NCBI GenBank assembly: GCA_965219505.1
Contig: OZ244775.1
Span: forward strand, 1,101,929-1,165,928
Direction: 5' to 3'
Origin: Chloroflexota bacterium
GTDB lineage: Bacteria; Chloroflexota; UBA11872; VXOZ01
Length of the DNA: 64,000 bases
Within the stretch, counting starts at the first letter, position 1. Each line of letters begins with the position of its first letter. This document shows, piece by piece, positions 8,687-47,207 of the stretch. The notes beneath the pieces are model-generated. The model searched no databases, had not been told where the DNA came from, and was given only the letters and a program-made list of their open reading frames with translations. Position numbers and translations under genes: made by a program.

Positions 8687-8724
8687 GACGGCCCCGTGCT
8701 ATTGGGTGAAGTCGACGAACCCAG

Positions 8725-10369: not shown

Positions 10370-11804
10370 GGAACAGGGTGAGCGGAATCCCGTCTGCCCG
10401 CCGTACCCGGTAGTAGGTACGCGTAAGCGGCGCAGCCAGCCACCAGAGATCGAAGCACCATTGGTCGTCGATGCAGGCTACCTGATGCCACCGGTTCTTC
10501 AAGCGTACGGCTACGGGCTGGTTATCCTCGCCTGCCCGCACTTCCGTTGCCGTGGGCGTCGCCAGGGGTCTCATGCTGTCCTTCACCGCCGGATCGATGG
10601 GTACCTGCAGCGCGCGCAACTCCGGCGCGGGATGCCAGGGCGCAATATCCACCACCCGGAACAGCGCGCGCTTGCCCTGCATACGGGCTTGGAGCTGTCT
10701 GTCCGCCTCTACTAAACGGTCGGTCCTATCCTTGCGGACGTCGCGGAGCAGCCCCATCTGCATAGCGGACTCGCCCGTCAGATTCGCCAGGGTGAGCGTC
10801 ACCTCCTCGACAGGCGCGGGAGGATAGTCGGATTCCAGACGGCTTCTGATGATGCGCGCGGCCCGCTCGCAACCAACGCCGTGCTTGAAGTGGACGATTC
10901 TTTCCCACGGCGACGAGCGGAAAAGGCTGCACTGTATGGTGGCCTGCTCGGCATACCGCCCCCGCATCTGCGGCCGCGCGTACGCGCTCTTCAGCAGACC
11001 GTCCAGTGTCACCAGGAAGAGTTCCAGGGAGGTAGAGACAAACGGCAGCGTGACGTGTGCGGCAACGGACTCCTCGTGTTTTAGCGGGACAAAGGCCTCG
11101 TCGTCTATACCGTGGCAGAGCTGCCAGGCCCGGGTGCCGTCAGCGCCGAACTGGTCGCTGAGTTGGTCTACGCGCATGGCCGCCACGTCGCCCAAGGTGC
11201 GCAAGCCGAAGCGTTGCAGGCGCGCCAGCACTGCGGGAGCGAGCGGCAGCAGCGTAACGGGATGCGGCGCTAAGAACGCAGCCGCATACTCAGGCACTCG
11301 CGTTACCTCACCTGCCCGGCTGGCTTGGGCTGCGACCAGAGCAGGAAACTTGGCGTCCGCTACGCCTACGCGCGGCGCGAGGTCTTGGGGCACGGCGTTC
11401 AGCAAGGCGGCGGCAAGCCGCTCTTCACCTCCGTAGAGGGCCTCCAGTCCGTCGAGGCGCACGTACGCGACACCCAGCGCCGCATGCTCCACCCGATCGC
11501 TGACCTCCTGGAGAGAAGTAAGCACCTGCCGGAATACCTGCCGGTACGCCGGTTCGTTGGCTTCGATGACGACGGTGTTGGCATTATGGGAGAGCGCCTC
11601 CTCCAGCGACATGCCCACCGCTACCCCGGTGGTGGCCGGAAAGACGTCAATGACCTGAGGGCTGCTCGCCGAGCGGTCGACTATCACGGCTGGCGCTTGC
11701 GCCAGCTTGGGCTGCCGCCGCAACTCGCACTTGGCCCGCAAGTGGGTAATGAGCACACAGGCAACTTTCATGATGCCGCACCTCTTGTCTCCATTCCTTG
11801 CCAT
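10329..11804 (-). CDS. imuB: ImuB (catalytically inactive Y-family polymerase-like mutasome subunit)
   Basis: Y-family/ImuB-like N-terminus (MKVACVLITHLRAK; likely true start near 11771). It lacks the DMDxFF catalytic acidic motif of DinB. It overlaps and precedes dnaE2. Confidence 0.7.
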   Translation of the reverse strand: MARNGDKRCGIMKVACVLITHLRAKCELRRQPKLAQAPAVIVDRSASSPQVIDVFPATTGVAVGMSLEEALSHNANTVVIEANEPAYRQVFRQVLTSLQEVSDRVEHAALGVAYVRLDGLEALYGGEERLAAALLNAVPQDLAPRVGVADAKFPALVAAQASRAGEVTRVPEYAAAFLAPHPVTLLPLAPAVLARLQRFGLRTLGDVAAMRVDQLSDQFGADGTRAWQLCHGIDDEAFVPLKHEESVAAHVTLPFVSTSLELFLVTLDGLLKSAYARPQMRGRYAEQATIQCSLFRSSPWERIVHFKHGVGCERAARIIRSRLESDYPPAPVEEVTLTLANLTGESAMQMGLLRDVRKDRTDRLVEADRQLQARMQGKRALFRVVDIAPWHPAPELRALQVPIDPAVKDSMRPLATPTATEVRAGEDNQPVAVRLKNRWHQVACIDDQWCFDLWWLAAPLTRTYYRVRRADGIPLTLFHDRRGGRWYQQAA

Positions 11805-11989
11805 TATAGAACTTCCTTTTTACGCAGAAACCGCAATGGAGGGATATAATGATTCACGATGGTATGTCGAAAGGGAGCCAGCACTGTGTGCCACAGCTAA
11901 AACGGTTAAATGCCTAGCTAAGAGGGCCGGCAAACCACCCGCAACCTACAATGGTTCAAGCTACGTCTACCAATTTCAACCCCGCTTCC

Positions 11990-12019
11990 TTGACACCGTG
12001 GCGCGTTGTTTGGTACATT
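11990..12019 (+). promoter_or_regulatory. Candidate sigma70-type promoter for the 23S-5S rRNA transcript
   Basis: TTGACA (11990-11995), 18-nt spacer, TACATT (12014-12019), ~80 nt upstream of the 23S 5' end. A GCCCTAgaaaTAGGGC hairpin follows at 12028-12043. Confidence 0.4.
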
Positions 12020-12100
12020 AGTGGATGCGCCCTAGAAATAGGGCGGTACATTAACAAGTGAATATGCGCAAGCAGAACTTCAATTTTGCCGATTAAAAGC

Positions 12101-15192
<3,092 letters not shown>

Positions 15193-15431
15193 GCTTCTAA
15201 TCGGCAAATTTGGAGTTCTGCAATCTGTGAATTATTCTCCAAGCGCGAGAATTCTATCACCTAGGTCGGGAAAGTCATGGCGGGTTTGTACGCCAGGCGT
15301 TCCCAATAAAGAACTGCGCATCGTTCACTATTGCACTTTGACATAACGCGTCGTCTCTTGATGTGCGCCTGCTACCCGTCGTTGGGCGGCCTCGCACGTA
15401 CGGCACGTTTCTAATATCCCAGTCAAGAATT

Positions 15432-15550
15432 CCTTGGGTGACAAGGCGAGGGGGGTACACCCGTTCCCATCCCGAACACGGTAGTTAAGCCCCTTAGCAC
15501 TGACGATACTGCACGGGCGACTGTGTGGGAAAATAGGCCGTTGCCCAAGG
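15432..15550 (+). rRNA. rrf: 5S ribosomal RNA
   Basis: CCTTGGGTGACAAGGCGAGGGGGGTACACCCGTTCCCATCCCGAACACGGTAGTTAAGCCCC...GGCCGTTGCCCAAGG with complementary ends; ~240-nt spacer after the 23S. Confidence 0.9.
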
Positions 15551-33199: not shown

Positions 33200-34300
33200 A
33201 CCACTACCTAAGAACTCTCTGAACAAGTCCCTGGCATAGTATCATAGCAAGAAAGCAGCCTATGGTGAGGAGCTGGGTAATGGAGCAGCCGACGTTTGCC
33301 GACCTGGAGTACGCGCAGAAGAAGCGCAAGACGCGGCGGGAGAAGTTCTTGGAGCGGATGGACGCGCTGCTCCCGTGGGCGGAGTTGGAGGCGCGCATTG
33401 CGCCGTACTATCCCAAGGCGGGACGCGGACGGCGGCCGTATCCTTTGTCGGTAATGCTGCGGATCCACTGTGTGCAGGCTTTCTACAATCTGAGTGATCC
33501 TGGGATGGAGGACATGCTGTACGAGGTGGAACCGGTGCGGCGGTTCGTGGGGCTGCGGCTGTCAGAGGCGCTGCCGGACGAGACGACGATCCTGCACTTT
33601 CGGCATTTGCTGGAGAAGCATCGGTTGGGAGAGGGGTTGTTGGCGGAGATCAACGCGCATCTGGCGAGGCGGGGCTTGCGGCTGCGAGCGGGGACGGTAG
33701 TGGACGCGACCATCATCGCGGCGCCGACATCGACGAAGAACCGATCAGGATAGCGAGACCCGGAGATGCGGCAGGTGAAGAAGGGGAACCAGTATTACTT
33801 TGGGATGAAGCTGCACATCGGCGTCGACGCGCAGACGGGGCTCGTGCACAGCTTCACCACCACATCGGCCAACGTGCACGACGTAACGCAAGCGGCGGCG
33901 TTGCTGCACGGCGCAGAGCAGCAGGTGTGGGGAGACGCCGGGTACGTGGGGGTGCAGAAGCGGCCGGAGCATCAGGGACGCGCCGTGACCTGGAAGGTGG
34001 CGCTGAAGCCGGGGCAGCGACGGCAGTTGGCGTCAGAGAGCGCGGCGGCGCTGGCCGAGCAGCGCAAAGCGTCGGTCAGGGCCAAGGTAGAGCATCCGTT
34101 CCTGTGGGTGAAGCGGCGCTTTGGCTACGCCACGGTGCGCTATCGGGGCTTGCACAAGAACACGCAACGGCTGGCGTTGCTGCTGGGACTGACCAACCTG
34201 GTGACGGCCGCACGCCAGTTGGCAACATGACACGGGAGCAGTGCGCCCAAAACACGGCTGGGAGCGGAAACACTCCCCACAGCGCCAAAACATGGGCAAA
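33200..34300. mobile_element. IS5-family element (ends approximate)
   Basis: Encodes an IS5-type transposase; a low-complexity CA-rich tail follows at 34300-34380. Confidence 0.6.
33262..34230 (+). pseudogene. IS5-family DDE transposase interrupted by one in-frame TAG (33751-33753)
   Basis: ORFs 33262-33753 and 33766-34230 are in the same frame. ...[42 protein letters not shown]... follows the E. coli IS5 pattern ...[40 protein letters not shown]... The TAG occupies a codon position, apparently a Q (CAG) equivalent. Confidence 0.8.
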
Positions 34301-35201: not shown

Positions 35202-35252
35202 TGTTTCAGTGAAGTTCGTACTACAAGCCTCCGGGTCTGAGGTGCGAGTGGG

Positions 35253-35325
35253 TGGAGATGAGGAGACTCGAACTCCTGCCCCCCTCCTTGCAAAGGAGGT
35301 GCTCTCCCAACTGAGCTATGTCCCC
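35253..35325 (-). tRNA. tRNA-Ala(TGC)-like second copy, probably a pseudo-tRNA
   Basis: 73 nt identical to the 44795-44870 tRNA-Ala over the D-arm, anticodon arm and T-arm. The 5' acceptor strand is GGGGACA against 3' CATCTCC, so the two basal pairs are mismatched (C6-A67, A7-C66). The genomic 3' end is CCC rather than CCA. Confidence 0.5.
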
Positions 35326-35603
35326 GTGCGGCGGCTAGAATAACAGGGCAATGGTTACTGAATGCCGGCGCTGCTTTTGGTGGTGGGCCACTGGGAAATT
35401 GGGTCGGCGATGCATGAAACAATGCAATACCAGAAAGGGAAGAATAGAAGGCGGGGTATACCGAACGAGTATATGTCATTGCTCCGCTCCGATAGGTAGT
35501 TCAAGGAACTATGGGTCACGGTGTGGGTGGTCGTTACCAAGGCCGCTATAGGGCACCGAGGAAGGGACCCTCTGTGAGTCGATGGCAAACATGACGGGAA
35601 AGT

Positions 35604-36715
35604 TTACGCCCAAACGTTGCGGGCGGTCTCGGCGACGATGCGGAGTTTTGCGTATTGCTGCTCGACCGAGAGAGGATTGCCGACGATGGATGAGCCGAAC
35701 CCGCACTGAGGACTGATGGCGAGTTGCTCGAGAGGGAAGTGGCGGGCAGCCTCGGCGATCCTAGACTCAAGCTCGGATGGGGTCTCCGCGCGAGGTGACT
35801 TGGTCGTGACCAGCCCAAGCGCCACTTGCTTGTCGTCCGGCACGCCGCGCAGAGGCTCGAACGAGCCTGAGCGTGGGTCGTCGTACTCCAGCATCAACCG
35901 CTGCGCGTTCACGCGCTCGAGAACCGGCCCAACAATCCGGTCGTAACTGCCTTCGACCAGCCAACGGCCGCCTTGGTTCCCACGTCAGAGGTGGAATGCG
36001 AACACTACTTCCGAGAAACCGTCCATCACGGCGTTATCCAGCTCGACGCCCTGGGCGATCCAGTCCTCCGCAGACCAACCCTGGGCCTCGTAGAAGGCCG
36101 CCCACACCGGATCCAGCACGAGTGGGTAGTGCGGAGCGTCGAGTTGGATGTAGGTCGCCCCAAGCCTTATCAGCTCTTCGATCTCCCCACGGACTATCCG
36201 CGCGACATCGGCCAAGAACGCATCCAGCGTGGGGTAGGCTGCGGCGGACTTCACCGGTGACCAGAAGTTGGCGAACAGGCTGGGGCTCGGCAGTGTCACC
36301 TTTGCTATGCGGGTGGTGCGGCCGCGCAGGTAGGTGAACTCCTCCGCCGACAGGTGGCGCTTCCGCTGGAGGGGACCGACGACACCCAGAGTCGCAGGAC
36401 GTTCCTTGCGCAAGTCTCCTACCCGTTCGCCGCCCTGCCAATCGCCCCAGAGGAACGCGTCGATATCGAACTCGCCAAAGCCTGCGACTGCCTCGGGCAT
36501 CTGACTCTGGAACGAGAGCCTGCGCATTTCGCCATCGGTGAGGATTTCAAGTCCGGCCTCCTCCTGGGCAGCTACGGCACTATCGACAGCGGCGTCCTCG
36601 GCGCGCTTGAATTCCGAGGGCAAGATTCGCCCGGCCGCAAATTGCTCGCGCGCGGCGAGTAGCTCCGGTGGTCTAATTAGGCTCCCAACGACATCGGCAT
36701 GAGGTAGATTCAGCA
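35604..36715 (-). pseudogene. Cobalamin-independent methionine synthase (MetE) C-terminal-domain-like protein with an in-frame TGA (35985-35987) at the conserved H-x-C zinc-ligand position
   Basis: ORFs 35985-36869 and 35604-35912 are in the same frame. Read-through gives ...VVFAFHL[TGA]RGNQGGRWLVEGSYDRIVGPVLERVNAQRLMLEYDDPRSGSFEP...SPQCGFGS. MetE-family proteins have H-x-C-x-G-N here. Likely true start is MLNLPHADVVGSLIRP (~36715). Confidence 0.55.
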
Positions 36716-37015
36716 TGGCGAATAGCCCCGCATATCTTGGCGGTTTGGGACAGACAAGCCGGGCCTGCCGAGTCGGTGGATTTCCAAGACGATCTGGGCA
36801 GCGACAACGCGGCGCTCCATCCAACTCTGGGGCTCGCCTGCGGCAAGACCAACAGCAGCAACCGGGCAAGCGCTGCCACGCGAGCGTGCAATGACTGACT
36901 CCATGCGGCTCATAGCAGCCAAGGGCTTGACTTCAAGGGTGTGACGGCAACTCCGGATGCAGAATCCTGCGTCTGCCGACATGTATGAACCCCGCCGAAC
37001 CATTATTGTATCAGG

Positions 37016-37453
37016 ATGGTGGACCAGAGGAAGGCCGATAGCAGGCAGGCATCCACCCGGCCACACACAGGCGCAGACGGCAAGGTGATCGCAAGTACCG
37101 TGTTCACGTATGAGGCAAAGAGGAGTGCATTCCATGCTCTGGACGCCTCCACCGGGGATGAGCTGTGGAGCCTCGGATCTGACTGGGGCCTGTCGTCGAT
37201 CATGGTGGTTGACGGAGTGGTGTACGCCCATTCCCTGTCTGGCTATCTCCACACGCTGGAGGCCCGAACCGGGGAGCCGATCTGGAGCCTCGACATCGGC
37301 TATCAGTGGCGGCGACGACCCTTCGCCGTTTCTGAGGGTGTGGTCTACGTGGGTTTACCGGCCAGCAACCTGGACCGAGGGCCAGGGCAGGCCATCCAGC
37401 GGCGTTTACGCCTTTGCCGCCCCTGGCCGCAAGTAATTGATGTCAGGGAATAG
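37016..37453 (+). CDS. PQQ-repeat beta-propeller fragment (~3 blades), probable gene remnant
   Basis: Repeats AFHALDASTGDELWS and YLHTLEARTGEPIWS plus VVYAHS / VVYVGL strands. Too short for a full propeller. Confidence 0.35.
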   Translation: MVDQRKADSRQASTRPHTGADGKVIASTVFTYEAKRSAFHALDASTGDELWSLGSDWGLSSIMVVDGVVYAHSLSGYLHTLEARTGEPIWSLDIGYQWRRRPFAVSEGVVYVGLPASNLDRGPGQAIQRRLRLCRPWPQVIDVRE

Positions 37454-37683
37454 GAAATGAAGACCGCAATGTGTAGATAGGGCCTTGAGTTCTTCGTCTT
37501 CCAATCAACACAAAGAGTACGGTTCTCAAGGGCAATAGATTTGGATGCAACTAGGGTCCAAGCTACTTGGAAGAGTTGTCCCCCAGGATATAGTCCGCTT
37601 AACGGTTGGCAGTGGCCGGCAGGAGTGTCAATTGCAAGGATAATCCGGCAGTGTTAGAATCGATGCTCGGAAGGTAGAGCCTT

Positions 37684-38130
37684 ATGAACGCGTCTCTCAA
37701 TGGGTTCCGCATCATGGTCGTGGTCGGCGTTCTCGTGAACGCCGCATTCTGGGGGCCTGCATTGATTGCGCCTCAGATGATCAATGATACTCTCGGATTC
37801 GACCCCGGTTACCACACCGTTTGGCTGCGGAACGTTGGGATGCTACTGCTGATTGTGTCCATCACCAATGTCGCCGCCGCGCTTGACCCATATCGCTACC
37901 GATTGTTCGCGTGGCTTGTGGTCGTAGGGCGACTCATCGCGGCGTCGTTCTTCCTGGAGATTTGGCTGTTCGATGCTCTCGAATCGTCCGATAGGCCCAA
38001 TGCGTTCAAGTGGTTCTTCCTAACCGACGTTTCGCTTGGCGCCATCAAGGGGATCTTGCTCTATGCTGGACTGAAGCTGCGCGATGCCGAGAGTAGCCCT
38101 GATATCTCACAGAAGAACCGGATGGTGTAG
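37684..38130 (+). CDS. Small polytopic membrane protein (4 predicted TM)
   Basis: 148 aa with four hydrophobic stretches; the stop abuts the start of the OYE gene. Confidence 0.45.
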   Translation: MNASLNGFRIMVVVGVLVNAAFWGPALIAPQMINDTLGFDPGYHTVWLRNVGMLLLIVSITNVAAALDPYRYRLFAWLVVVGRLIAASFFLEIWLFDALESSDRPNAFKWFFLTDVSLGAIKGILLYAGLKLRDAESSPDISQKNRMV

Positions 38131-38134
38131 CGAA

Positions 38135-39442
38135 ATGGACGTGATCTTCGAGCCGCTCGAATTCCGAAATCTTACAGTGAAGAACCGCATCTTCCGGTCG
38201 AACATCGCGGGACGTTTTGACAATTACGATGGCTCCGGCAACCAGGCTCGCATCAATTGGGAGCTGAAGTTTGCCAAGGGCGGCGTAGGCGCAATTATCT
38301 CTTCCTTTGTTCCGGTGACGATACAGGGGCGCATAGTACCCAACTACGCGACCATTCACCGCGATGAGCACATTGCGTTCTGGCGAGAACTCGGAGAGCG
38401 GGTTCACGAGCATGACTGCAAGTTCATCTTGCAGCTTAGTCACTCCGGGCGGCAACGTGACATCCGTGGTGTCGAGTATGGCAATGGCATCAGCTCCACG
38501 GGCAAGGCTGAGCCGCTGCACGGCTTCCAGTGTGAGAGCATGACGTTGCGGGACGTTCGCGAGACCGTGGACGCCTTCGCTCAGGGGGCGAGACGCGCGC
38601 GAGAAGCCGGCCTAGACGGAGTTGAGCTTCACGGAGCCAACGGATATCTAATTACGCAGTTCCTCAGCTCGGCGATAAACGACCGCAAGGATGACTACGG
38701 CGGCTCGTTGGAGAACCGCGCGAGGTTCGTGCGAGAGATCGTTCGAGCCATCCGGTCGGAGGTAGGGGCGGATTTCCATCTTCAAATGAAGATCAGCGCG
38801 ACGGACTACAACAACGATGTGTTTCCCTGGGAACACAGGGGGACCACCATCGGCGAGTCGGTTCAGGTCTGCAAGTGGCTGGAAGAGGACGGTGTGGACG
38901 CCATTCACGTATCGGCCGGCAGCATGTTTCCCCATCCCCGCAACCCTGCTGGGGATCTGCCTATGGGTGAACTGGCGCAGAATTACGGCGTGATGTTATC
39001 CAGCGGCGTACACACTCACCGCAATCACTGGATCTTCCGCAAGTGGCCCTTCCGCAATCTCTTCCACTGGCGTTGGACACGAGCGCATCAGGGACGGATT
39101 GAGGGGATTAATCTGCCGGACTCGGCAGCCATCAAGAATGCCGTCAACCTTCCGGTCATCTGCACCGGCGGGTTTCAGACGGCATCGGTCATCCGAGAAG
39201 CCATTATGAGCGGCCAGTGCGACGCAGTAAGCATCGCCCGCCCCCTGGTGGCCAACAATGATCTGGCCAAACTGTTCGCGGCCGGCCACGATCGTGCGCT
39301 GAGGCCATGCACCTACTGTAACAAATGCCTCGTGAACACGGCAAACAATCCGCTGGGGTGTTATGAGGAGGCTCGGTTCGACTCTCGGGAGGAGATGATC
39401 CGCGAGATCATGTCGGTGTTCGAGCCTCGTCCGTTCGAGTAG
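38135..39442 (+). CDS. Old-Yellow-Enzyme family FMN ene-reductase with C-terminal 4Fe-4S motif (2,4-dienoyl-CoA reductase N-terminal-like), lacking the FAD/NAD(P) reductase domains
   Basis: TIM-barrel OYE signatures (FLQLSHSGRQ, HGANGYLITQFLS, DYGGSLENR) and CTYCNKCLVNTANNPLGC (C-x2-C-x2-C-x11-C) at the C-terminus. Start taken at ATG 38135 (MDVIFEPLEF). Confidence 0.8.
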   Translation: MDVIFEPLEFRNLTVKNRIFRSNIAGRFDNYDGSGNQARINWELKFAKGGVGAIISSFVPVTIQGRIVPNYATIHRDEHIAFWRELGERVHEHDCKFILQLSHSGRQRDIRGVEYGNGISSTGKAEPLHGFQCESMTLRDVRETVDAFAQGARRAREAGLDGVELHGANGYLITQFLSSAINDRKDDYGGSLENRARFVREIVRAIRSEVGADFHLQMKISATDYNNDVFPWEHRGTTIGESVQVCKWLEEDGVDAIHVSAGSMFPHPRNPAGDLPMGELAQNYGVMLSSGVHTHRNHWIFRKWPFRNLFHWRWTRAHQGRIEGINLPDSAAIKNAVNLPVICTGGFQTASVIREAIMSGQCDAVSIARPLVANNDLAKLFAAGHDRALRPCTYCNKCLVNTANNPLGCYEEARFDSREEMIREIMSVFEPRPFE

Positions 39443-39498
39443 CCGCTGGCAGGTGCGGTGCGAGTGCAGCCTGAGATCGACATCTTGAGGGGGCAGCT

Positions 39499-40941
39499 AT
39501 GACGAGGGGCAAGAGGATAGCACTGGCGGCAGGCATAGCCGTGGTTCTCGTCGTGCTGGGGATTGGCATTCCCACACTGGTCTGGTTTCAAAGGAGTGTG
39601 CCTGAGGTGCATGATGACCCGAGTGCTCATTTCAAGTATGGCTCTATTGGCTCGGAGGGCAGGGACGGTATTCCCTACTGGGTCTGGCTGGTCTTGCCGG
39701 AAGTGTTTCCGGAGCATCTGCCCGACGGCCCGGGAGAGGGTTATAGCAGATTTGGCTTCATCTTCGAGGCTGAGTCGCCTATGGGCCGTCCAATCGGCAC
39801 ATCCTATCGGGAAGAGCCGATACCTATGGTCGGTCTCAACTGCGCCGTGTGCCATACGGGTACCATCCGCGAGTCAGCGGAAGCCGCAGAGGAGGTCGTC
39901 TTGGGAATGCCGGCCCACCAATTCGACCTGCAGCAGTATTTGAACTTCCTCTTCGCGGTTGCCAATGACAGCCGGTTCGACGCGGATACCCTCATCCCGG
40001 CCATCGAGAGGGTGCACCCCGCTTTCTCCTGGATCGACAGCTTGTTTTACAGGCACATAGTCATTCCACGCACTAGGGATGAAATATTGAAGGCAGCCGA
40101 CCAGTTTGCCTGGATGAATGCGTTCCCTGCCGCCGGTCCGGGACGAGTGGATACGTTCAACCCGTACAAATTCAATGTACTGGGGTTGGAGGAGGAGGAC
40201 CCTCATGTCGGCACCGCCGACCTGCCGTCGCTGTGGAATCAAGCGCCGCGGGAAGGAATGTGGCTGCACTGGGACGGCAACAACGACTCGGTGGAGGAGC
40301 GGAACAGAAGCGCGGCCATCGGCGCGGGCGCATCGCCGGAATCGCTGGACGCGCCCGCCATGGAGCGGATAGCGGAGTATATAGCTGCGCTTCAGCCTCC
40401 CGCCTTTCCCGACGATAGGATAGACCGTGCCAAGGCACGGGCAGGCGAGGAAGTTTACGAACAACGCTGTGCAGTCTGCCATTCTTTCGATGGCGCAAGG
40501 GTTGGGCAAGTGGTACCTATTGAGGAAATCGGCACCGATCCGGAACGCTTGGATTCCTTCACCCCTGAGCTTGCAGATGAGATGAACACGCTGGGAGAGG
40601 GCCATCCCTGGAAATTCTCGAATTTCCAGAAAACCAGTGGATACTCAAACATGCCTCTGGATGGCATTTGGCTTCGCGCTCCCTATCTTCATAACGGATC
40701 GGTTCCCACTCTACGAGACTTGCTTGCACCACCTGAACAGCGTCCGACCGTGTTCTACCGGGGGTACGCTGTCTATGACTATGAGAACCTCGGCTTTGTG
40801 TCGAGCGGCGCGGAGGCGGAGAAGGCAGGCTTCAGGTTCGACACCGCCGAGCGTGGGAATAGCAACCAGGGGCATCTCTACGGCACGGACCTGAACGCTA
40901 GTCAAATCGAAGCCCTGCTGGAGTATCTGAAGACGCAGTAA
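39499..40941 (+). CDS. Membrane-anchored di-haem cytochrome c, peroxidase-like (CCP/MauG or DHOR family)
   Basis: N-terminal TM. Two CxxCH motifs (CAVCHTG, CAVCHSF) ~210 aa apart. C-terminal WLRAPYLHNGSVPTLRDLL resembles the CCP-family APYxHxG...TL segment. Confidence 0.6.
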   Translation: MTRGKRIALAAGIAVVLVVLGIGIPTLVWFQRSVPEVHDDPSAHFKYGSIGSEGRDGIPYWVWLVLPEVFPEHLPDGPGEGYSRFGFIFEAESPMGRPIGTSYREEPIPMVGLNCAVCHTGTIRESAEAAEEVVLGMPAHQFDLQQYLNFLFAVANDSRFDADTLIPAIERVHPAFSWIDSLFYRHIVIPRTRDEILKAADQFAWMNAFPAAGPGRVDTFNPYKFNVLGLEEEDPHVGTADLPSLWNQAPREGMWLHWDGNNDSVEERNRSAAIGAGASPESLDAPAMERIAEYIAALQPPAFPDDRIDRAKARAGEEVYEQRCAVCHSFDGARVGQVVPIEEIGTDPERLDSFTPELADEMNTLGEGHPWKFSNFQKTSGYSNMPLDGIWLRAPYLHNGSVPTLRDLLAPPEQRPTVFYRGYAVYDYENLGFVSSGAEAEKAGFRFDTAERGNSNQGHLYGTDLNASQIEALLEYLKTQ

Positions 40942-40995
40942 AGTAACGGCAGCGCGTGGGATTTCGATAACAGGACAGAAGCCGGAGGCGCACAT

Positions 40996-42312
40996 TTGAA
41001 GCAGGCTATCAAAGGCTTTCCCTCGACCGGATTCGTTGACCTTCTGCGGCTACTAGGCCAATGTGCGGGAAGCTTCGCCAAAGGGCCTCGTTCCTTCAAC
41101 TTCGATTTGACTTTCCAAGACTGGCTTGGAAGACAGGCCCGCCGTACTCGAAGCGAGAACGTTGTCCTAAACCTATACTTCAAGAAATTCCTCGTAGTCA
41201 CGGGACGCGAGTTGTCGGCGCGCATTCTGGCTCAGCCTCCCTACGTCCACGGCTACGTGGAAGGAAGGACGAAAGCCCGGGCGATGTCGTTTCTCGCTCC
41301 GCGGGCTCTGACGATAACGCATGGTGAGCAGTGGCGGCGTCTTAGGCGGTTCAACGAAGCTGCGCTCCGAGTAAGCGGGGCAGATGCGCGAACGCAGTTC
41401 ATCGTGGACGGGGTGAACAAGGCATTTCAAGCGCCGGTGTCTGACATCGATGACATCAGGGATTGCATGGCCCAAACTATGCTCATGGTGGTCTTCGGGT
41501 CTGACAGTGCCCCTGCCCACCTGGTGGAGGATGTCCAGGTTCTGTTTGAGCACGTGCAGAATCCCGGTAGAAGAATACTGTTCGGGTGGAGACAGGCAAA
41601 ACGCCGGAGGCGGTTCTATGAGGCGCTCCGCCGACTCTGGAGAGAGAGCACGGAGTCGGGCGAGCCCAGCCTGCTCTCCACGGCTAGAGGCGCGTCTTAC
41701 AATGGCAGCTTTACCGAAGAGGAACTCATACAGCAGATCCCGCACTGGATGTTTACATTCACCGGCTCCGGTACCGACCTGCTGGCGCGAACCATTGGGA
41801 TAGTGGCGTCCAGAAACGAGGTCTATGACAGGGTTCATGCCGAAGCGACGGGGCGGAATTCAACGAGTCTTGCGTCGGCAGCCATGCGAATAGAGTACCT
41901 GGAGGCCTGTCTGCTGGAAGTCTGCCGTCTGTATCCCCCGGTGACGCGCACCTTTCACGCAGCCCCTCAAGGGGACACCTTCGACGGCTTCCGAATACCG
42001 GCAGGGTTGGAGATTCTGCACTGCTTCACGGCGAACCAACGGGATGTCTCCCGCGACCCAACGGCCAACGACTTCCGGCCCGAGAGATGGATGGAACCTG
42101 GAAGCAACGCAGAGGCCATGTATCCCAGCCTCTTTCTCGGAGGCGCGAGGAACTGCCCCGGCAAGGGTCTCATTCTTCTGGTGTGTAAGGCCGCCATACT
42201 GAATTTGATTCAGTACGGTCGAATACGCTCTGAATGTCCAGCCCTATCGCAAGACCCGCTACCACGCTCGTATCCAGAGAACGGCCTCAGGTACCACGTA
42301 CAACCCTATTGA
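40996..42312 (+). CDS. Cytochrome P450 monooxygenase
   Basis: ExxR motif EVCRLYPP and haem-thiolate loop FLGGARNCPGKGL. Standard-length Cys loop, so not CYP74-type. Confidence 0.85.
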   Translation: MKQAIKGFPSTGFVDLLRLLGQCAGSFAKGPRSFNFDLTFQDWLGRQARRTRSENVVLNLYFKKFLVVTGRELSARILAQPPYVHGYVEGRTKARAMSFLAPRALTITHGEQWRRLRRFNEAALRVSGADARTQFIVDGVNKAFQAPVSDIDDIRDCMAQTMLMVVFGSDSAPAHLVEDVQVLFEHVQNPGRRILFGWRQAKRRRRFYEALRRLWRESTESGEPSLLSTARGASYNGSFTEEELIQQIPHWMFTFTGSGTDLLARTIGIVASRNEVYDRVHAEATGRNSTSLASAAMRIEYLEACLLEVCRLYPPVTRTFHAAPQGDTFDGFRIPAGLEILHCFTANQRDVSRDPTANDFRPERWMEPGSNAEAMYPSLFLGGARNCPGKGLILLVCKAAILNLIQYGRIRSECPALSQDPLPRSYPENGLRYHVQPY

Positions 42313-42365
42313 GCCTCCGAATCTGTGCCCACGGGCGCATTGGTTCACCACATAGGAGGAGGACA

Positions 42366-44726
42366 ATGAGCAACTCGAATGAAGATGCGATGCGGTTGAT
42401 CGGGGAACGCAGGTTCCGCGACGCTCTCGGACTGCTGAGAGCGCATCTGGATGCAGACTCCAATGGCGAAACTCATGCACTCGCCGGGGCCGCGCACTAC
42501 GGCCTACAGGAGTACGCCGAGGCTGCCGAAAACTACGAGCGAGCGCTGCAGCTTGATCCGAATAGGCGGACGACGTGGCAGGACATGTTGATGCAGTCCC
42601 GCGCGAACGCGGTCGCTGAAGTGAATGTGCATGTCCCGGACATATCTTACTTCGATCGCGACACGCTGCTCGCTAGGCCGGTCGTACAGGATGGTTCTCT
42701 GCCCGCCACTCCGATGGATCCGCCGGGTCGCGGACTCTTCGGATGGGTTCGATGCATAGTGGGGAACGCGGGAGGAGCGATCGTTTCGTTAGCGATGAGC
42801 GGAGTGACTCAGGCCCTTGGTCGGTTGGCCGGATACCGCGACGAGGTGTGGACAAACTGGTACCATAGGCCATATTTCATCGGAATCCTCACCCTGGCAT
42901 ACATGCGCGAGCAACTCAACAGGAATAACCTCAAGAGCACCTATCCTCCGGGAGCCTTGATAGGCTTTCAGCCGGAGGGACAGTCTCCACCTCCGGGGGT
43001 GAGACACTTTCGCACCGCCGACGGAAGCTGGAACAACCTGGCCGACCCCAAAGAGGGCGCCGCAGGTACTCGCTTCCCCCGCAACGTGAACAACGACGTG
43101 ATTCGCCCGGAGACGGGTGATGGTCTGATGACGCCGAATCCGAGAGAGCTAAGCCGCATCTTCTTGGCAAGGGGAGAGCAGATGAAGGAAGTGCCATTCC
43201 TTAATCTGCTGGCCGCGTCATGGATCAACTTCCAAAACCATGATTGGGTGCATCACGGAGAGCCTCTCATAAATGAGGTGCATGAGATACCGCTGGCCGA
43301 AGACGATCCGGCTCGGAAGAAGCACTGGCAGACCAGGATGTTCGTCGGCAAGACCCAATCCGATCCTACCCGTATGTCCGACCGAGAACGTACCCCCATA
43401 ACGTTCATCAATGAGGTCACCCACTGGTGGGACGGCTCACAGATATATGGGAGCGATCAGGAGACGTTGGACAAACTCCGAACCGGAGTAGGCGGCAAGC
43501 TGAGGCTCGATGACGCCGGCAATCTGCCGCTCGACGACAAAGGGATCGAGCAGACCGGCTTCACAAGGAATTGGTGGATTGGTCTCGCCATGCTTCACAC
43601 TCTCTTCACCAGGGAGCACAACGCCATCTGCGACCGGCTGAAGGAAGCCTATCCCGATTGGGACGACGCGCGGCTGTTCAATGTGGCGCGCCTTATCAAT
43701 GCGGCCGTGATGGCCAAGATCCACACCGTCGAATGGACCCCGGCCATTCTTCCGAATCGCGGGCTCGACTCCGGTCTGAACGCCAACTGGTACGGCCTGT
43801 TCACCACCTACAGGGCGCCTGAGAACAGGAAGACGGTCGCGGACATCAACGTGCGGAACCCAGAGATGGGAGGTGTTGTAGGCAATCCGATCAACAAGCA
43901 CGGGCAGCCCTACGGCCTCACCGAGGAGTTTGTGGAAGTCTATCGCCTGCACTCGCTATTGCCCGAGACAATCCGAATCAGAAGCCTTGGCAATGACAGC
44001 GTGGCCGAGGACGTGCCGTTCGTCGAGACTCGCCAGGCAGGTTCCGGCCAGCTTACCTCGAAGTCTTCAATGGCCGATCTCTTCTACTCGTTCGGCGTCC
44101 AGCATCCGGGTCAGTTGGTGCTGAACAACTACCCCGATTTCATGCGAGAGCTCAGCGTTCCTGGCAACCCGCTCTTCGATATGGGTGCAGTGGACATTCT
44201 TAGGGCGCGCGAAAGGGGGGTGCCCAGATACAACGAGTTCAGGCGTCAGTTGGGACTCAACCCCATTCGCACATTCGACGACCTTACCGACGATGGAGAC
44301 AAGGTGCGGAAGCTCAAGGATGTGTATGGGGACCAACCGGATGATGTGGAGAAGCTCGACTTACTGATCGGCACTCTTGCTGAAGGGCATCGCCCCACTG
44401 GGTTCGGTTTCGGCGAAACGCTATTCCAGATATTCATTCTGAACGCGACTCGAAGACTTCAGGCGGACCGCTTCTACACCGACAGCTACAACGAACGGAC
44501 GTACACGAAGGAAGGCCTTGCATGGATCGATGGTTCCGATCTCAAGACCGTCATACTCCGCCACTTTCCTGAACTCTCTCAAACGGGACTGGGGAACATC
44601 AAGAACGCCTTTGAGCCATGGGATACCGGAGAGAGACTCGACCCGGAACGCCATCCGCTCCGCGAGTTCGACAGGGACCTGGGACCGGACCCATTGCTGG
44701 GTGATGCTTGGACGAGTCGACGCTAG
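42366..44726 (+). CDS. Haem dioxygenase/peroxidase of the animal peroxidase-cyclooxygenase superfamily (alpha-dioxygenase / COX-like fatty-acid oxygenase)
   Basis: Distal-His region LLAASWINFQNHDWVHH (cf. alpha-DOX AAWIQFMIHDWIDH). Proximal-His region HTLFTREHNAICDRLKEAYPDWDDARLFNVARLINAAVMAKIHTVEWT (cf. COX TIWLREHNRVCD). Start ATG at 42366 with GGAGGAGG RBS. N-terminal TPR-like segment. Confidence 0.8.
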   Translation: MSNSNEDAMRLIGERRFRDALGLLRAHLDADSNGETHALAGAAHYGLQEYAEAAENYERALQLDPNRRTTWQDMLMQSRANAVAEVNVHVPDISYFDRDTLLARPVVQDGSLPATPMDPPGRGLFGWVRCIVGNAGGAIVSLAMSGVTQALGRLAGYRDEVWTNWYHRPYFIGILTLAYMREQLNRNNLKSTYPPGALIGFQPEGQSPPPGVRHFRTADGSWNNLADPKEGAAGTRFPRNVNNDVIRPETGDGLMTPNPRELSRIFLARGEQMKEVPFLNLLAASWINFQNHDWVHHGEPLINEVHEIPLAEDDPARKKHWQTRMFVGKTQSDPTRMSDRERTPITFINEVTHWWDGSQIYGSDQETLDKLRTGVGGKLRLDDAGNLPLDDKGIEQTGFTRNWWIGLAMLHTLFTREHNAICDRLKEAYPDWDDARLFNVARLINAAVMAKIHTVEWTPAILPNRGLDSGLNANWYGLFTTYRAPENRKTVADINVRNPEMGGVVGNPINKHGQPYGLTEEFVEVYRLHSLLPETIRIRSLGNDSVAEDVPFVETRQAGSGQLTSKSSMADLFYSFGVQHPGQLVLNNYPDFMRELSVPGNPLFDMGAVDILRARERGVPRYNEFRRQLGLNPIRTFDDLTDDGDKVRKLKDVYGDQPDDVEKLDLLIGTLAEGHRPTGFGFGETLFQIFILNATRRLQADRFYTDSYNERTYTKEGLAWIDGSDLKTVILRHFPELSQTGLGNIKNAFEPWDTGERLDPERHPLREFDRDLGPDPLLGDAWTSRR

Positions 44727-44794: not shown

Positions 44795-44870
44795 TGGTGG
44801 AGATGAGGAGACTCGAACTCCTGACCCCCTCCTTGCAAAGGAGGTGCTCTCCCAACTGAGCTACATCCCC
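44795..44870 (-). tRNA. tRNA-Ala(TGC), CCA encoded, G3:U70 present
   Basis: GGGGATGTAGCTCAGTTGGGAGAGCACCTCCTTTGCAAGGAGGGGGTCAGGAGTTCGAGTCTCCTCATCTCCACCA. Perfect cloverleaf, anticodon TGC. Confidence 0.9.
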
Positions 44871-45088
44871 GTGACTGGCAGCCGCGCAGAGCGCTAAAGG
44901 CGCATCGAAACCCCTCAACAAGCCCCAGCACGCCCCGGGCCGCGATGGAGGCATCGGTTCGTGTCTGCCGGAATTCTCAAATGCTTTGCAGGCGAAAGTT
45001 GAAAGGGTTGCGCAGTGAAAACTATCCCTACAATGCTCGTTCCGGCCTGTGCCGCATTTATAAAGAGGCTGCGGTTTCGCTGCCGTCG

Positions 45089-45166
45089 TGGTGGGCCACT
45101 GTGGATTTGAACCACAGACCTCGCCCTTATCAGGGGCGCGCTCTAACCAAGCTGAGCTAGTGGCCC
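45089..45166 (-). tRNA. tRNA-Ile(GAT), CCA encoded
   Basis: GGGCCACTAGCTCAGCTTGGTTAGAGCGCGCCCCTGATAAGGGCGAGGTCTGTGGTTCAAATCCACAGTGGCCCACCA. Anticodon GAT. Confidence 0.9.
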
Positions 45167-45676
45167 GCAGAATACGCTGTAAAGCCAGTCTCTTGTTTAT
45201 TGTACCACCCTTGGCTTGGCCTGCACGTCGCCAATTCAGTGGCAGGCAAATCGCATTTCTCACAGGGGGAATATAGCGCAGCAAACGCCGGTATGCAACT
45301 TTGCCAAGCGGCTGTATGGTGGACAAATCGACGCCATGAGTCCGGCCGTGTATCGGTGAGTCAGCTATCGAATTTCGCGCACAGAGTGGTCAGGCAAGTG
45401 GGACCAAGTCTGCGGGCAGGTGCAGATTGTCACTCGGCTGAGACATGACTAGACGCACATTCGGCACTTCGACCGGTAGGTTTGGAGGGAGGGTAAAGGA
45501 GTGGAGTGAGGTACAGAAAGATCCCTCAGTGGGGAGAGGGATCGTTGTTTTAGGGGATATAGAGCGATGGAAAAGGAGGCTGGCTTAGCAGGTGGAGGGT
45601 GATGAAGGGGGTGTTGGGAAGGAGAGAAAGGGGAAATAAGAAAAGGGATAGGTGGTAGGTGGGTAAAAGAACCCTA

Positions 45677-47207
<1,531 letters not shown>

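Follow-up and report, generated by a model that had tools for sequence, protein, structure and literature searches.

Several described systems offer points of comparison for the locus reported here. In the fungal Ppo/linoleate diol synthase enzymes and in the animal COX-CYP5A1/CYP8A1 routes, a haem dioxygenase is coupled to a reductase-free P450 (PMC13049297). In Nostoc punctiforme, the bacterial haem dioxygenase 10S-DOX works with an adjacent catalase-related hydroperoxide lyase. The rubber oxygenase RoxA is a dioxygenase that cleaves polyisoprene, and the RoxA branch also includes the Pseudomonas aeruginosa fatty-acid 10S-dioxygenase and 7,10-diol synthase (PMC4496055).

We analysed a 64,000-nucleotide stretch of a Chloroflexota genome (the window) that contains five genes with likenesses to each of these systems. 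No publication on this five-gene cassette was found in the literature. On balance, we favour the reading that it is a mobile operon that oxygenates free fatty acids in an oxylipin-type manner and is built from two conserved gene pairs.

Organization of the gene cassette

The operon spans positions 37684-44726 of the window on the + strand, as defined by open reading frames and HMM matches:

37567..37660, + strand: two sigma-70-like promoter matches 5' of up148 (consensus scan only; weak)
37684..38130, + strand: up148, first cassette gene, 148 aa (ORF and hydropathy; public gene call identical)
38135..39442, + strand: stand-alone FMN/[4Fe-4S] old-yellow-enzyme ene-reductase (FeS-OYE), 435 aa (Oxidored_FMN, PF00724, 1.4e-63)
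39499..40941, + strand: membrane-anchored RoxA/FadCcp-type di-haem cytochrome c, 480 aa (PF21419, NF040606)
40996..42312, + strand: cytochrome P450 'type A' (P450-A), 438 aa, TTG start (p450, PF00067, 6.9e-22)
42366..44726, + strand: TPR-alpha-dioxygenase (DOX), 786 aa (An_peroxidase, PF03098, 9.9e-110; TPR_2)

A sequence-only reading of this DNA had described the last four genes as co-directional and closely spaced, and the HMM matches back the families that it named; its count of four was one short, as the conserved up148 gene precedes them. The genes are separated by 4, 56, 54, and 53 nt, each start is preceded by a Shine-Dalgarno-like sequence, and on its + strand the cassette contains no predicted terminator-like site. 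Homology across genomes starts at ∼37657-37697, and the two weak promoter matches from the consensus scan read TTGGAA-16-TATAGT and TTGCAA-17-TAGAAT. Public gene calls are identical to our models of up148, FeS-OYE, and cytochrome c, and one (P0264, 438 aa) matches P450-A at 100% identity over 100% of the query. The 830-aa length first given for DOX came from an over-extended ORF, its 786-aa model being identical to public gene call P0001, and the overlap reported between the P450 and DOX reading frames does not exist (P450 stop at 42312, DOX start at 42366). In comparisons with three relatives, divergence at codon position 3 was well above that at positions 1 and 2 in the FeS-OYE, cytochrome c, P450, and DOX genes, showing that all four are under purifying selection.

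The up148 product is a small membrane protein that has three to four hydrophobic helices, no Cys, and a single His, and it had no match in Pfam or NCBIfam searches. Its gene occupies the same position in seven cassette genomes (66-95% identity), sits between the DOX and cytochrome c genes in locus L015, and adjoins the cytochrome c gene in six metagenome loci.

The dioxygenase and its P450 partner

DOX consists of a ∼160-aa N-terminal TPR extension and an α-DOX-type tyrosyl-radical haem dioxygenase. Its match to rice α-DOX (4kvj; 1.7e-114, 387 bits, ∼590 residues) and to the Arabidopsis enzyme (4hhr; 1.2e-106) compares with 1e-27 (99 bits) for peroxinectin/LPO and 1e-13 (52 bits) for COX. DOX thus groups with the fatty-acid α-dioxygenases, in the same fold family as 4KVJ, 4HHR, and CalDOX/LepDOX, and not with peroxidasin- or LPO-like proteins. 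The distal His motif pointed out earlier was correctly placed (H292 in WINFQNHDW), whereas H529 in VYRLHS, and not the His of FTREHNAICDRL, serves as the proximal haem ligand; H529 adjoins the catalytic Y526, as in α-DOX and COX. When the residue roles listed in PMC8720084 are mapped onto the alignment, DOX has H292 (rice H157), H453 (H311), T458 (T316), Y526 (Y379), H529 (H382), and R696/R697 (R558/R559), along with the α-DOX-equivalent residues W457, F522, F687, F690, I691, and A694. The distal and proximal His, the catalytic Tyr, the carboxylate His/Arg, and the channel residues are identical to those of plant and cyanobacterial α-DOX, and every residue listed here is invariant in the 15 family members aligned. 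Because DOX keeps all the residues that hold the carboxylate near the catalytic Tyr, oxygenation at C-2 is predicted. DOX differs from characterised α-DOXs in its TPR extension, which they lack, and in being encoded in an operon with a P450, a di-haem cytochrome c, and an OYE.

P450-A contains an ExxR motif (nt 41917-41940) and a canonical Cys loop of normal length (FLGGARNCPGKGL, nt 42133-42171). Its I-helix (MFTFTGSGTDLL, nt 41749-41784) is the same in 10 of 12 aligned orthologues, with a single conservative change in each of L048 and L061, and is non-canonical in that the acid of the acid-alcohol pair is missing, with the register uncertain by 1-2 residues. A CYP74-like assignment was rejected, as P450-A has no CYP74-type Cys-loop insertion. 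The family is small (448 matches), and all of the contexts examined had an An_peroxidase gene next to it; the cassette provides it with neither a ferredoxin nor a reductase gene. The pair resembles the fungal DOX-CYP and COX-CYP5A1/CYP8A1 systems in that DOX is of the same superfamily and has a dedicated P450 family always adjacent to it. It differs from the Ppo/linoleate diol synthase fusions in that the two proteins are encoded separately, across a 53-nt spacer, that DOX is α-type rather than an 8-, 9-, or 10-DOX, and that the fungal CYP domains and P450-A are unrelated; any hydroperoxide isomerase activity of P450-A is putative.

The ene-reductase and cytochrome c pair

As the sequence-only reading had noted, FeS-OYE lacks FAD/NADPH domains and ends in a four-Cys motif (CTYCNKCLVNTANNPLGC, nt 39308-39361), although the spacing of that motif is C-x2-C-x2-C-x10-C and not x11 at its last interval. 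In NCBIfam it best matches FadH-, BaiCD-, and bilirubin-reductase-type models, over their N-terminal halves, and in the PDB it comes closest to YqjM-type OYEs and the N-terminal domain of FadH; on these PDB matches the protein is YqjM/FadH-like, and an OPR-like class was rejected. It shares the TIM-barrel FMN domain and C-terminal four-Cys motif with FadH, trimethylamine dehydrogenase, BaiCD, and long bilirubin reductase, but, unlike FadH-type Fe-S flavoenzymes, it is entirely without FAD and NAD(P)H domains. The substrate-binding/proton-donor triad, H166/N169/Y171 (nt 38627-38662), is like that of classical OYEs and typical of enal/enone reductases. The length of ∼435 aa is kept in at least 398 metagenome relatives.

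In the cytochrome c, residues 7-25 form an N-terminal transmembrane helix, and one CxxCH motif is found at residue 115 (nt 39841-39855) and another at residue 324 (nt 40468-40482), in agreement with its earlier description as a membrane-anchored di-haem protein. The further description as CCP-like gave way to a RoxA assignment: RoxA (4b2n) was the sole significant solved-structure relative (profile, 2.1e-15, collinear alignment), and neither classical CCP nor MauG was matched in that comparison. The protein also matches RoxA-like_Cyt-c (PF21419, 3.8e-17) and NF040606, 'di-heme cytochrome c peroxidase' (204 bits; cut-off 150). Like RoxA, the protein has a pair of CxxCH motifs, a Trp between the haems, and a distal His at the C-terminal haem (RoxA W302 and H641 align with W258 and H459), whereas RoxA F317 has no counterpart in the alignment. 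Extracytoplasmic chemistry of the fatty-acid dioxygenase and hydroperoxide isomerase kinds has a precedent in RoxA and the P. aeruginosa oleate-diol synthase pair PA2077/PA2078 (FadCcp; compared by description only). The cassette protein lies on the RoxA branch but is shorter than these proteins (480 aa versus 650-700 aa), has a transmembrane anchor in place of a cleaved signal peptide, and is paired with a cytoplasmic FeS-OYE. It is predicted to be an extracytoplasmic oxygenase.

Occurrence of the cassette and its parts in other genomes

The whole cassette is syntenic in seven species-level genomes from two phyla (Dehalococcoidia L002, L004, L005, L006, and L008; Acidimicrobiia L009 and L056), and L007 contains part of it; the co-occurrence survey recovered the genes together, in a single syntenic block, from several genomes. 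The cassette is two recurrent gene pairs joined together. DOX and P450-A are adjacent, with no OYE or cytochrome c, in L023, L024, L048, and L061, and P450-A is paired with a short, TPR-less DOX in cultured Tolypothrix sp. PCC 7910 and in L172-L174. Key residues of the Tolypothrix DOX lie 1-3 positions from those of the characterised CalDOX (H131, H291, H362, and R526). The second pair is FeS-OYE with the RoxA-like cytochrome c, which is on the same strand in 27 of the 43 metagenome FeS-OYE loci with at least 1.5 kb of downstream sequence; a P450 was present in 0 of 80 OYE metagenome loci. Some loci contain the cytochrome c alone.

In a sister cassette (L088-L090), the OYE and cytochrome c are 76% and 60% identical to those of the window, and a lipoxygenase (LOX; PF00305, 6e-12) and a CYP152-like P450 take the place of DOX and P450-A. 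LOX and haem DOX both make fatty-acid hydroperoxides, and nothing supports a fatty-acid-hydroperoxide pathway more strongly than this sister cassette. The two cassettes need not share downstream chemistry, since a C-2 hydroperoxide is unlike LOX products.

Among 56 TPR-DOX loci flanked by at least 3 kb on either side, 32 had another oxygenase or haem partner (20 a RoxA-like cytochrome c, 14 a LOX-like protein, 10 P450-A, 10 a catalase-related protein, and 6 a DyP-like protein), and the other 24 had none of these within 10 kb. Two proteins are fusions, DOX-catalase-related (P0015) and DOX-P450 (P0058), in assemblies of 5-7x coverage, one of them frameshifted. The catalase-related partners (10 of 56 loci and P0015) recall the Nostoc punctiforme system, although its 10S-DOX is COX-like, 542 aa long, and mid-chain specific, whereas the window DOX is α-type and has a P450 as its partner. 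In soil loci, the OYE/cytochrome c pair occurs with GMC oxidoreductases (cholesterol-oxidase-like and choline-dehydrogenase-like), an 821-aa RoxA-like protein, and short α-DOXs; with the GMC and larger RoxA-like neighbours, these loci look catabolic rather than signal-producing.

Proposed pathway and alternatives

Taken together, the data support a fatty-acid hydroperoxide/aldehyde ('oxylipin-type') pathway, and the cassette is, judged from its sequence, a good candidate for an uncharacterised bacterial fatty-acid oxidation pathway. From the enzyme families, active-site conservation, operon, synteny, two recurrent pairings, and replacement of DOX by LOX, all of which are observed, we infer the substrates, step order, and products that follow. 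In DOX, H453 and R697 would bind the carboxylate of a fatty acid, a haem-generated tyrosyl radical on Y526 would abstract hydrogen at C-2, and addition of O2 would give the 2-hydroperoxy fatty acid. P450-A, which has neither a reductase gene nor the I-helix acid, would form a defined product from this labile 2-hydroperoxide or from the Cn-1 aldehyde that it yields, possibly with its substrate as its own oxidant. The cytochrome c may oxygenate or cleave a lipid C=C bond on the outside of the membrane, probably with up148, and the OYE would reduce the resulting α,β-unsaturated aldehyde or ketone in the cytoplasm. Since prediction places the cytochrome c outside the membrane and the OYE, P450, and DOX in the cytoplasm, a shared pathway would need a metabolite to cross the membrane. 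The output could be a signal or a catabolic intermediate.

A minority reading that deserves some weight is that the cassette serves the catabolism or scavenging of lipids that are unsaturated, very-long-chain, or methyl-branched (isoprenoid). Here the RoxA-like enzyme would cleave C=C bonds extracellularly, the OYE would saturate the resulting enals, and α-DOX and P450 would trim one carbon to allow β-oxidation, as in phytanic-acid-type α-oxidation. The polyisoprene cleavage by RoxA, the neighbours of the soil OYE/cytochrome c loci, and the role of α-DOX as the entry enzyme of plant α-oxidation all agree with it, but genes for an aldehyde dehydrogenase, an acyl-CoA ligase, or β-oxidation are absent from the cassette, the F317 essential to RoxA is not kept, and the catalase-related, LOX-like, DyP-like, and P450 partners of TPR-DOX resemble oxylipin hydroperoxide-processing enzymes. 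We regard as improbable a plant- or fungus-like mediator route, in which a mid-chain hydroperoxide would be rearranged by the P450 (as an allene-oxide, epoxy-alcohol, or diol synthase) and the enone reduced by an OPR3-like OYE to a jasmonate- or prostaglandin-like signal. The parallel with LOX-AOS-OPR and Ppo drawn in the sequence-only reading holds at the level of enzyme classes, which match fungal DOX-CYP fusions and follow the order of plant LOX-AOS-AOC-OPR3 and LOX-HPL, and it gains from L088-L090, where a true LOX homologue, a P450, and an OYE do stand together; the absent P450 reductase and non-canonical I-helix also suit such a route. The parallel breaks down in that DOX H453, T458, and R697 place C-2 at the Tyr radical, and a 2-hydroperoxide, having no conjugated diene, would give no allene oxide or cyclopentenone. 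Further, the window dioxygenase is haem-/α-type, P450-A is not of the CYP74 type, no allene oxide cyclase is present, and the OYE is of another class, with an Fe-S cluster. Because of these differences (C-2 DOX, non-CYP74 P450, non-OPR OYE, and no cyclase), a step order of dioxygenase, P450, and then OYE is an analogy and not a finding.

The retention of the [4Fe-4S] motif in an OYE that has lost its FAD/NADPH domains suggests electron exchange with another protein, and no other reductase is encoded in the cassette. FeS-OYE might thus pass electrons from NAD(P)H through FMN and [4Fe-4S] to the haem of an O2-activating P450, which would hydroxylate the DOX product, rather than act as an ene-reductase; this is unlikely, as the conserved partner of the OYE is the cytochrome c, with no P450 in its 80 metagenome loci, and P450-A and DOX occur without OYE in L023, L024, L048, L061, and Tolypothrix. 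Lower still is the probability of a lipid-peroxidation defence, with DOX and the di-haem protein as peroxidases that detoxify hydroperoxides alongside removal of reactive enals. Members of the An_peroxidase and CCP superfamilies can reduce peroxides and enal detoxification is common among OYEs, but DOX retains every dioxygenase residue, those that bind the carboxylate included, the cytochrome c matches RoxA and not peroxidase-type CCPs, and the sporadic distribution of a mobile cassette is unlike that of housekeeping defence. That the genes are chance neighbours with no functional link is hardly credible, given five-gene synteny in two phyla despite unrelated flanks and pairings that recur in independent lineages.

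Probable mobility of the operon

The favoured reading, an oxygenating operon built from two pairs, also has the operon moving between genomes. The flanks of the cassette are unrelated from one genome to another, with homology ending exactly at the cassette edges, and differing tRNA genes abut the cassette or lie within ∼1.2 kb of it in the window and four relatives. The flanking features in the window are:

33262..34230, + strand: IS transposase, two ORFs (DUF772, DDE_Tnp_1), just outside the repeat
35251..35401, - strand: relic tRNA-Ala and 22-nt tRNA-Ile 3'-end fragment; left-hand repeat copy
44795..44870, - strand: tRNA-Ala(UGC), convergent with the DOX 3' end; right-hand direct-repeat copy

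No integrase was found at the window locus, and its GC content is not anomalous, two points that do not fit the earlier suggestion of an island; the unrelated flanks, tRNA genes, tRNA-Ala repeat, and nearby IS do, and the best explanation is that the five-gene operon is horizontally mobile between bacterial genomes. The 78-nt tRNA-Ala duplication brackets the cassette, with its copies 9.5 kb apart. The right-hand copy belongs to a 16S-tRNA-Ile-tRNA-Ala unit, and the relic is 96% identical to it over 78 nt, with two acceptor-stem mismatches and no CCA.

The cassette consists of five genes on one strand

The cassette (window positions 37684 to 44726) is made up of the following genes.

37684-38130, +: up148, small membrane protein, 148 aa
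38135-39442, +: OYE, 435 aa
39499-40941, +: di-haem cytochrome c, 480 aa
40996-42312, +: P450 (P450-A), 438 aa, TTG start
42366-44726, +: dioxygenase (DOX), 786 aa

Intergenic spacing is 4, 56, 54, and 53 nt, an SD-like sequence precedes all five starts, and no terminator-like site was predicted on the + strand within the cassette. A previous sequence-only reading of this DNA had named four gene families here (OYE, di-haem cytochrome c, P450, and dioxygenase), all of which were confirmed in HMM searches; the product of the remaining gene, up148, had no match in Pfam or NCBIfam. That reading had drawn the dioxygenase as an 830-aa ORF overlapping the P450 gene. Public gene calls are identical to our models of all five genes, including the 786-aa dioxygenase; therefore, the 830-aa ORF is an over-extension and was rejected as the DOX gene. 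When OYE, cyt c, P450, and DOX were compared with three relatives, divergence at the third codon position was 2-5 times that at positions 1 and 2, a pattern that shows the four to be working genes.

The dioxygenase groups with fatty acid α-dioxygenases

In the HMM search, DOX matched An_peroxidase (PF03098) at 1e-109. When all PDB sequences were searched, the best matches were rice α-DOX (1.7e-114) and Arabidopsis α-DOX (1.2e-106), over ~590 residues, compared with 1e-27 for peroxinectin and lactoperoxidase (LPO) and 1e-13 for cyclooxygenases (COX), the last confined to a 50-residue stretch. With bit scores of 387 for rice α-DOX, 99 for peroxinectin/LPO, and 52 for COX, the protein groups with the fatty acid α-DOXs rather than with other peroxidases, as had been proposed, and a peroxidasin- or LPO-like identity was rejected on the same PDB similarity. 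The residues that define α-DOX chemistry have been listed in rice numbering (PMC8720084), and each of them is identical in the window protein.

Residues of rice α-DOX (PMC8720084) and the residues aligned with them in the window DOX
H157, distal His: H292
H382, proximal His: H529
Y379, catalytic Tyr: Y526
H311 and R559, carboxylate binding: H453 and R697
T316, C-2 positioning: T458
W315, F375, F549, F552, I553, and A556, channel: W457, F522, F687, F690, I691, and A694

All of these residues are invariant across the 15 members of the DOX family alignment (A1), which are 65-84% identical to the window DOX. Such an active site predicts that the enzyme would oxygenate its substrate at C-2; 2(R)-hydroperoxy fatty acids and Cn-1 aldehydes are the products typical of α-DOXs. 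The proximal His lies three residues past the catalytic Tyr in both proteins (Y379/H382 in rice, Y526/H529 in the window DOX), and the motif that the sequence-only reading had taken for the proximal His, FTREHNAICDRL, occupies the peroxidase-type position rather than that of the α-DOX/COX ligand, H529. Bacterial α-DOX homologues have been noted before in a phylogeny (PMC8720084).

At 786 aa, the window DOX departs from the single-domain α-DOX architecture of ~560-650 aa. Its N-terminal ~160 aa match TPR_2/TPR_1, an extension that is absent from characterised α-DOXs. In an AlphaFold2 model built from A1, a shallow alignment of sequences too similar to one another (mean pLDDT 44), this extension was the sole part modelled confidently, as helical repeats. 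A search of DOX for a strongly hydrophobic transmembrane helix found none.

P450-A lacks two usual features of an O2-activating P450

P450-A matched PF00067 at 6.9e-22 and has a canonical ExxR motif (EVCR) and Cys loop (FLGGARNCPG). Its best PDB match was CYP120 (1.5e-10), and there was no CYP74 among its PDB matches; whereas CYP74 enzymes (AOS/HPL) carry an insertion in the Cys loop, that of P450-A is of canonical length. The I-helix sequence, MFTFTGSGTDLL, is the same in 10 of the 12 aligned orthologues (41-79% identical overall), with a single conservative change in each of the other two (L048 and L061). It aligns with LFAGHETLTS of CYP120, and when FTFTGSGTD of P450-A is set against FAGHET of CYP120, there is no acidic residue in either register; therefore, P450-A lacks the acidic member of the acid-alcohol pair. 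Unlike O2-activating P450s, which have an (A/G)Gx(D/E)T pair in the I-helix and a redox-partner gene, P450-A has neither, as the cassette contains no ferredoxin or reductase gene.

The P450-A family is small (448 matches), and in all contexts examined its gene adjoins an An_peroxidase gene. In the cyanobacterium Tolypothrix sp. PCC 7910 and at loci L172-L174, that neighbour is a short, TPR-less DOX; in Tolypothrix, the key residues of this DOX are 1-3 positions off those published for the characterised CalDOX. No fusion proteins were found among the best 120 of the 448 P450-A homologues.

The ene-reductase and the di-haem cytochrome are shorter than their FadH- and RoxA-type relatives

The OYE matched Oxidored_FMN (PF00724, a TIM barrel) at 1.4e-63 and has the classical active site, with the His/Asn pair (H166 and N169) and the Tyr proton donor (Y171) in LHGANGYL. 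Past the barrel lies a four-Cys motif, C392-x2-C-x2-C-x10-C409, that is invariant in the FeS-OYE family alignment (A2) and that, from its sequence, is predicted to bind a [4Fe-4S] cluster. Only 26 residues follow the last Cys. In NCBIfam, the FadH, BaiCD, and bilirubin reductase models (640 positions) match the protein only through model positions 1 to ~255. Because these matches are limited to the N-terminal halves of the models, the FAD/NADPH domains are absent, as had been claimed earlier. In contrast, FadH-type Fe-S flavoenzymes contain FAD and NAD(P)H domains and total ~640-670 aa, compared with 435 aa here.

The cytochrome is anchored in the membrane by its N terminus, and its two CxxCH motifs lie at residues 115 and 324. 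It matched the RoxA-like domain PF21419 at 3.8e-17, and its sole significant structural relative was the rubber oxygenase RoxA (4b2n; 5.9e-10 with a single sequence, 2.1e-15 with a profile), with which it aligns in five collinear segments. The inter-haem Trp of RoxA, W302, corresponds to W258 in HWDG, and H641, the axial His ligand of its C-terminal haem, to H459 in NQGH; both are invariant in the cytochrome family alignment (A4). The protein differs from RoxA in having a gap at the essential distal Phe317 and from RoxA/FadCcp in size (480 aa compared with ~650-700 aa), and its scores against the NCBIfam RoxA, RoxB, and RoxC models were 48-82 bits, with cut-offs of 900-1000 bits. A classical CCP or MauG was rejected as its identity, since neither was matched in the PDB profile search and RoxA was. 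The RoxA branch includes the Pseudomonas aeruginosa fatty acid 10S-dioxygenase PA2077 and 7,10-diol synthase PA2078 (PMC4496055). An AlphaFold2 model built from A4, likewise shallow and composed of sequences too similar to one another, had a mean pLDDT of 54; the quality of this model and of that of DOX was too low for fold searches.

The cassette recurs in other phyla and joins two gene pairs

With one genome scanned per species, relatives of the TPR-containing DOX (TPR-DOX) were encoded in 361 species, and the 80 best loci, from many phyla and sharing 61% identity or more with the window DOX, were kept for analysis. In tblastn searches with the five window proteins, seven genomes were found to have the complete cassette with its gene order unchanged: the Dehalococcoidia MAGs L002, L004, L005, L006, and L008 and, among Actinomycetota, Candidatus Poriferisodalis (L009) and the Acidimicrobiales MAG L056. 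The four genes proposed earlier as a cluster therefore do co-occur in related genomes. L007 has a partial cassette (tblastn), and in L003, L012, and L056 the cassette is eroded, its P450 gene being truncated or reduced to remnants.

Neighbours were counted wherever a TPR-DOX locus extended 3 kb or more in both directions (56 loci), and 32 of these loci encode a further oxygenase or haem enzyme.

Partners of TPR-DOX at the 56 loci
RoxA-like cytochrome: 20
LOX-like protein, ~510 aa: 14
P450-A: 10
Catalase-related protein: 10
DyP-like protein: 6

Two proteins carry such partners in fused form. P0015 (1106 aa; L083 8001-11321) joins a TPR-DOX to a C-terminal catalase-related domain, on a contig with a coverage of only 5x. 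In P0058, a DOX is joined in frame, with a clean junction, to a P450 of type B, which is not the type found in the window; with its P450 part frameshifted and a coverage of 6.9x, this fusion lends weak support to a coupling of DOX and P450. P0015 is surrounded by PIN, SMODS, RES, and DprA-like genes, a setting suggestive of a defence or mobile island.

When metagenomes were scanned with the FeS-OYE alignment as the query, at least 398 relatives were found. Of the 43 loci whose sequence continues 1.5 kb or more downstream of FeS-OYE, 27 have a RoxA-like cytochrome gene on the same strand. Where the sequence reaches 4 kb or more beyond FeS-OYE in both directions (24 loci), the neighbours were the cytochrome (14), an 821-aa RoxA-like protein (9), two types of GMC oxidoreductase (7 each), a short α-DOX (7), and up148 (6); none of these 24 had a P450. 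The 821-aa protein, also di-haem, and the two GMC oxidoreductases, one cholesterol-oxidase-like and the other choline-dehydrogenase-like, often flank FeS-OYE at L136, L151, and other soil metagenome loci; these loci may represent a catabolic form of the module.

In a sister cassette (L088-L090, 880-7533), the OYE shares 76% identity and the Cys motif with that of the window, and the RoxA-like cytochrome shares 60% identity with its window counterpart; these genes are accompanied by a CYP152-like P450 and, on the opposite strand, a 628-aa lipoxygenase (PF00305, 6e-12). From the recurrent pairings and this lipoxygenase, we conclude that the cassette joins two pairs (DOX/P450 and OYE/cytochrome) and that LOX can replace DOX. 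Genes for an MFS transporter and CoA-transferases, as well as IS elements, border the sister cassette.

Other arrangements were also seen. In Burkholderiales (Rhodoferax and relatives; L037, L043, L044, L057, L062, L063, L065, L073, L080, and L081), the order is TPR-DOX, the ~510-aa LOX-like protein, and the RoxA-like cytochrome, often with a 1250-aa regulator containing adenylate cyclase, AAA, and TPR domains upstream. This LOX-like protein is sub-threshold for PF00305, is 26% identical to the L088 lipoxygenase, and ends in ...NINA. L172-L174 (123-10370) contain, within 10 kb, a DyP-like protein, a catalase-related protein that shares 70% identity with the family found beside TPR-DOX, an OYE remnant (the 189-aa C terminus of an FeS-OYE), P450-A, and the short DOX; this is a re-assortment of the same gene families in yet another lineage.

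Possible pathways

The evidence is best fitted by a fatty acid oxygenation pathway that proceeds via hydroperoxide and aldehyde intermediates, for which we infer the substrates, products, order of steps, and purpose. DOX would work together with P450, and the di-haem oxygenase outside the cytoplasm with the ene-reductase inside it, as two functional couples. The strongest argument for this pathway is comparative, in that two unrelated hydroperoxide-forming dioxygenases fill the same slot; in addition, the recurring neighbours belong to enzyme classes that process fatty acid hydroperoxides in other kingdoms. The sequence-only reading had likened the genes to the plant LOX-AOS-OPR route, and lipoxygenase, P450, and OYE genes do occur together in L088-L090. 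A literal plant-type pathway is nevertheless a weaker explanation, as the DOX active site predicts oxygenation at C-2, P450-A is not CYP74-like, and an allene oxide cyclase is absent. A catabolic role, in which lipids or isoprenoids would be cleaved and degraded by α-oxidation, remains a serious rival to fatty acid oxygenation because GMC oxidoreductases and large RoxA-like proteins surround the OYE at soil loci.

Fatty acid oxygenation can be extended to a modular, widely exchanged, and so far unrecognised bacterial oxylipin system. Here, swappable dioxygenases of the α-DOX or LOX type would pass fatty acid hydroperoxides to dedicated, reductase-independent P450s and then to the conserved pair of FeS ene-reductase and extracytoplasmic di-haem c oxygenase, yielding diffusible lipid mediators; the window version would have been passed between phyla by marine-sponge symbionts (Dehalococcoidia and Acidimicrobiia), perhaps for host-microbe or microbe-microbe signalling. 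Taken as a whole, we consider this extended account improbable.

Each enzyme family in the cassette is already known. Our literature search found no description of the cassette, the TPR-DOX subfamily, the P450-A companion family, the FeS-OYE/mini-RoxA pair, or a bacterial α-DOX/P450 gene pair. Oxylipin pathways are well mapped for animals, plants, and fungi; to our knowledge, those of bacteria are represented by only a few isolated enzymes. The cassette and its network of gene pairs provide a concrete, testable candidate for a bacterial pathway. They define a P450 family dedicated to haem dioxygenases and a minimal di-haem enzyme of the RoxA type that is linked to an unusual Fe-S OYE, and L088-L090 provide a natural swap of LOX for DOX. 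Since Tolypothrix sp. PCC 7910, which carries a DOX/P450 pair, is a cultured cyanobacterium, genetics and biochemistry are feasible. The enzymes would be of interest for biocatalysis (fatty aldehydes, 2-oxygenated acids, and ene-reduction), and should the products prove to be signals, they would be relevant to the biology of sponge symbionts.

The cassette lies between tRNA-derived repeats

Nucleotide homology between the window and all cassette relatives extends from ~37657-37697 to ~44707, and the flanks are unrelated. A convergent tRNA-Ala gene, part of a minus-strand 16S-tRNA-Ile-tRNA-Ala unit, lies 68 nt from the DOX stop. A relic tRNA-Ala (35251-35401), 9.5 kb to the left (repeat spacing 9545 nt), is 96% identical to it over 78 nt, has two acceptor-stem mismatches, has lost its CCA, and adjoins a 22-nt fragment of a tRNA-Ile 3' end. 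Differing tRNA genes occur within ~1.2 kb of the cassette in L002 (tRNA-Val), L003, L005 (tRNA-Ile), and L008 (tRNA-Ala), with direct abutment only in L002, where a genuine tRNA-Val (12433-12509) lies 72 nt past DOX; that of L003 (13543-13621) is a mutated tRNA-Ala copy with an altered anticodon loop, called as tRNA-Tyr(GTA).

When an integrase, transporter, or regulator was sought between the tRNA-Ala repeats, only gene fragments were present. Those between the relic tRNA and the cassette (35985-37453), a Meth_synt_2-like ORF (-) and a 145-aa PQQ β-propeller fragment, suggest a recombination scar. The earlier suggestion that the genes are island-borne thus stands as regards the tRNA-derived direct repeat and the variable insertion sites, but there is no integrase between the repeats and the GC content of the cassette (0.582, compared with 0.573 for the window) is unremarkable. 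Outside the repeats is an IS transposase (33262-34230, +) in two ORFs, DUF772 then DDE_Tnp_1, a split that may be explained by a programmed frameshift or by decay of the element. Homology between the window and L003 reaches 33110, breaks at this transposase, and restarts at 35235.

Compared with the L002 cassette (5338-12361), third-position differences in the window cassette are 0.03 for up148, 0.15 for DOX, and 0.28-0.36 for OYE, cyt c, and P450, a mosaic that suggests recombination between cassette copies. The rRNA genes of the window are unlinked, as is common in Dehalococcoidia, with 16S-tRNA-Ile-tRNA-Ala at 44795-47207 (-) and 23S-5S at 12102-15549 (+), ~30 kb away. The cassette sits where the 23S gene would come after 16S-tRNA-Ile-tRNA-Ala and, given how common such unlinked genes are in this group, need not be the cause of the split.
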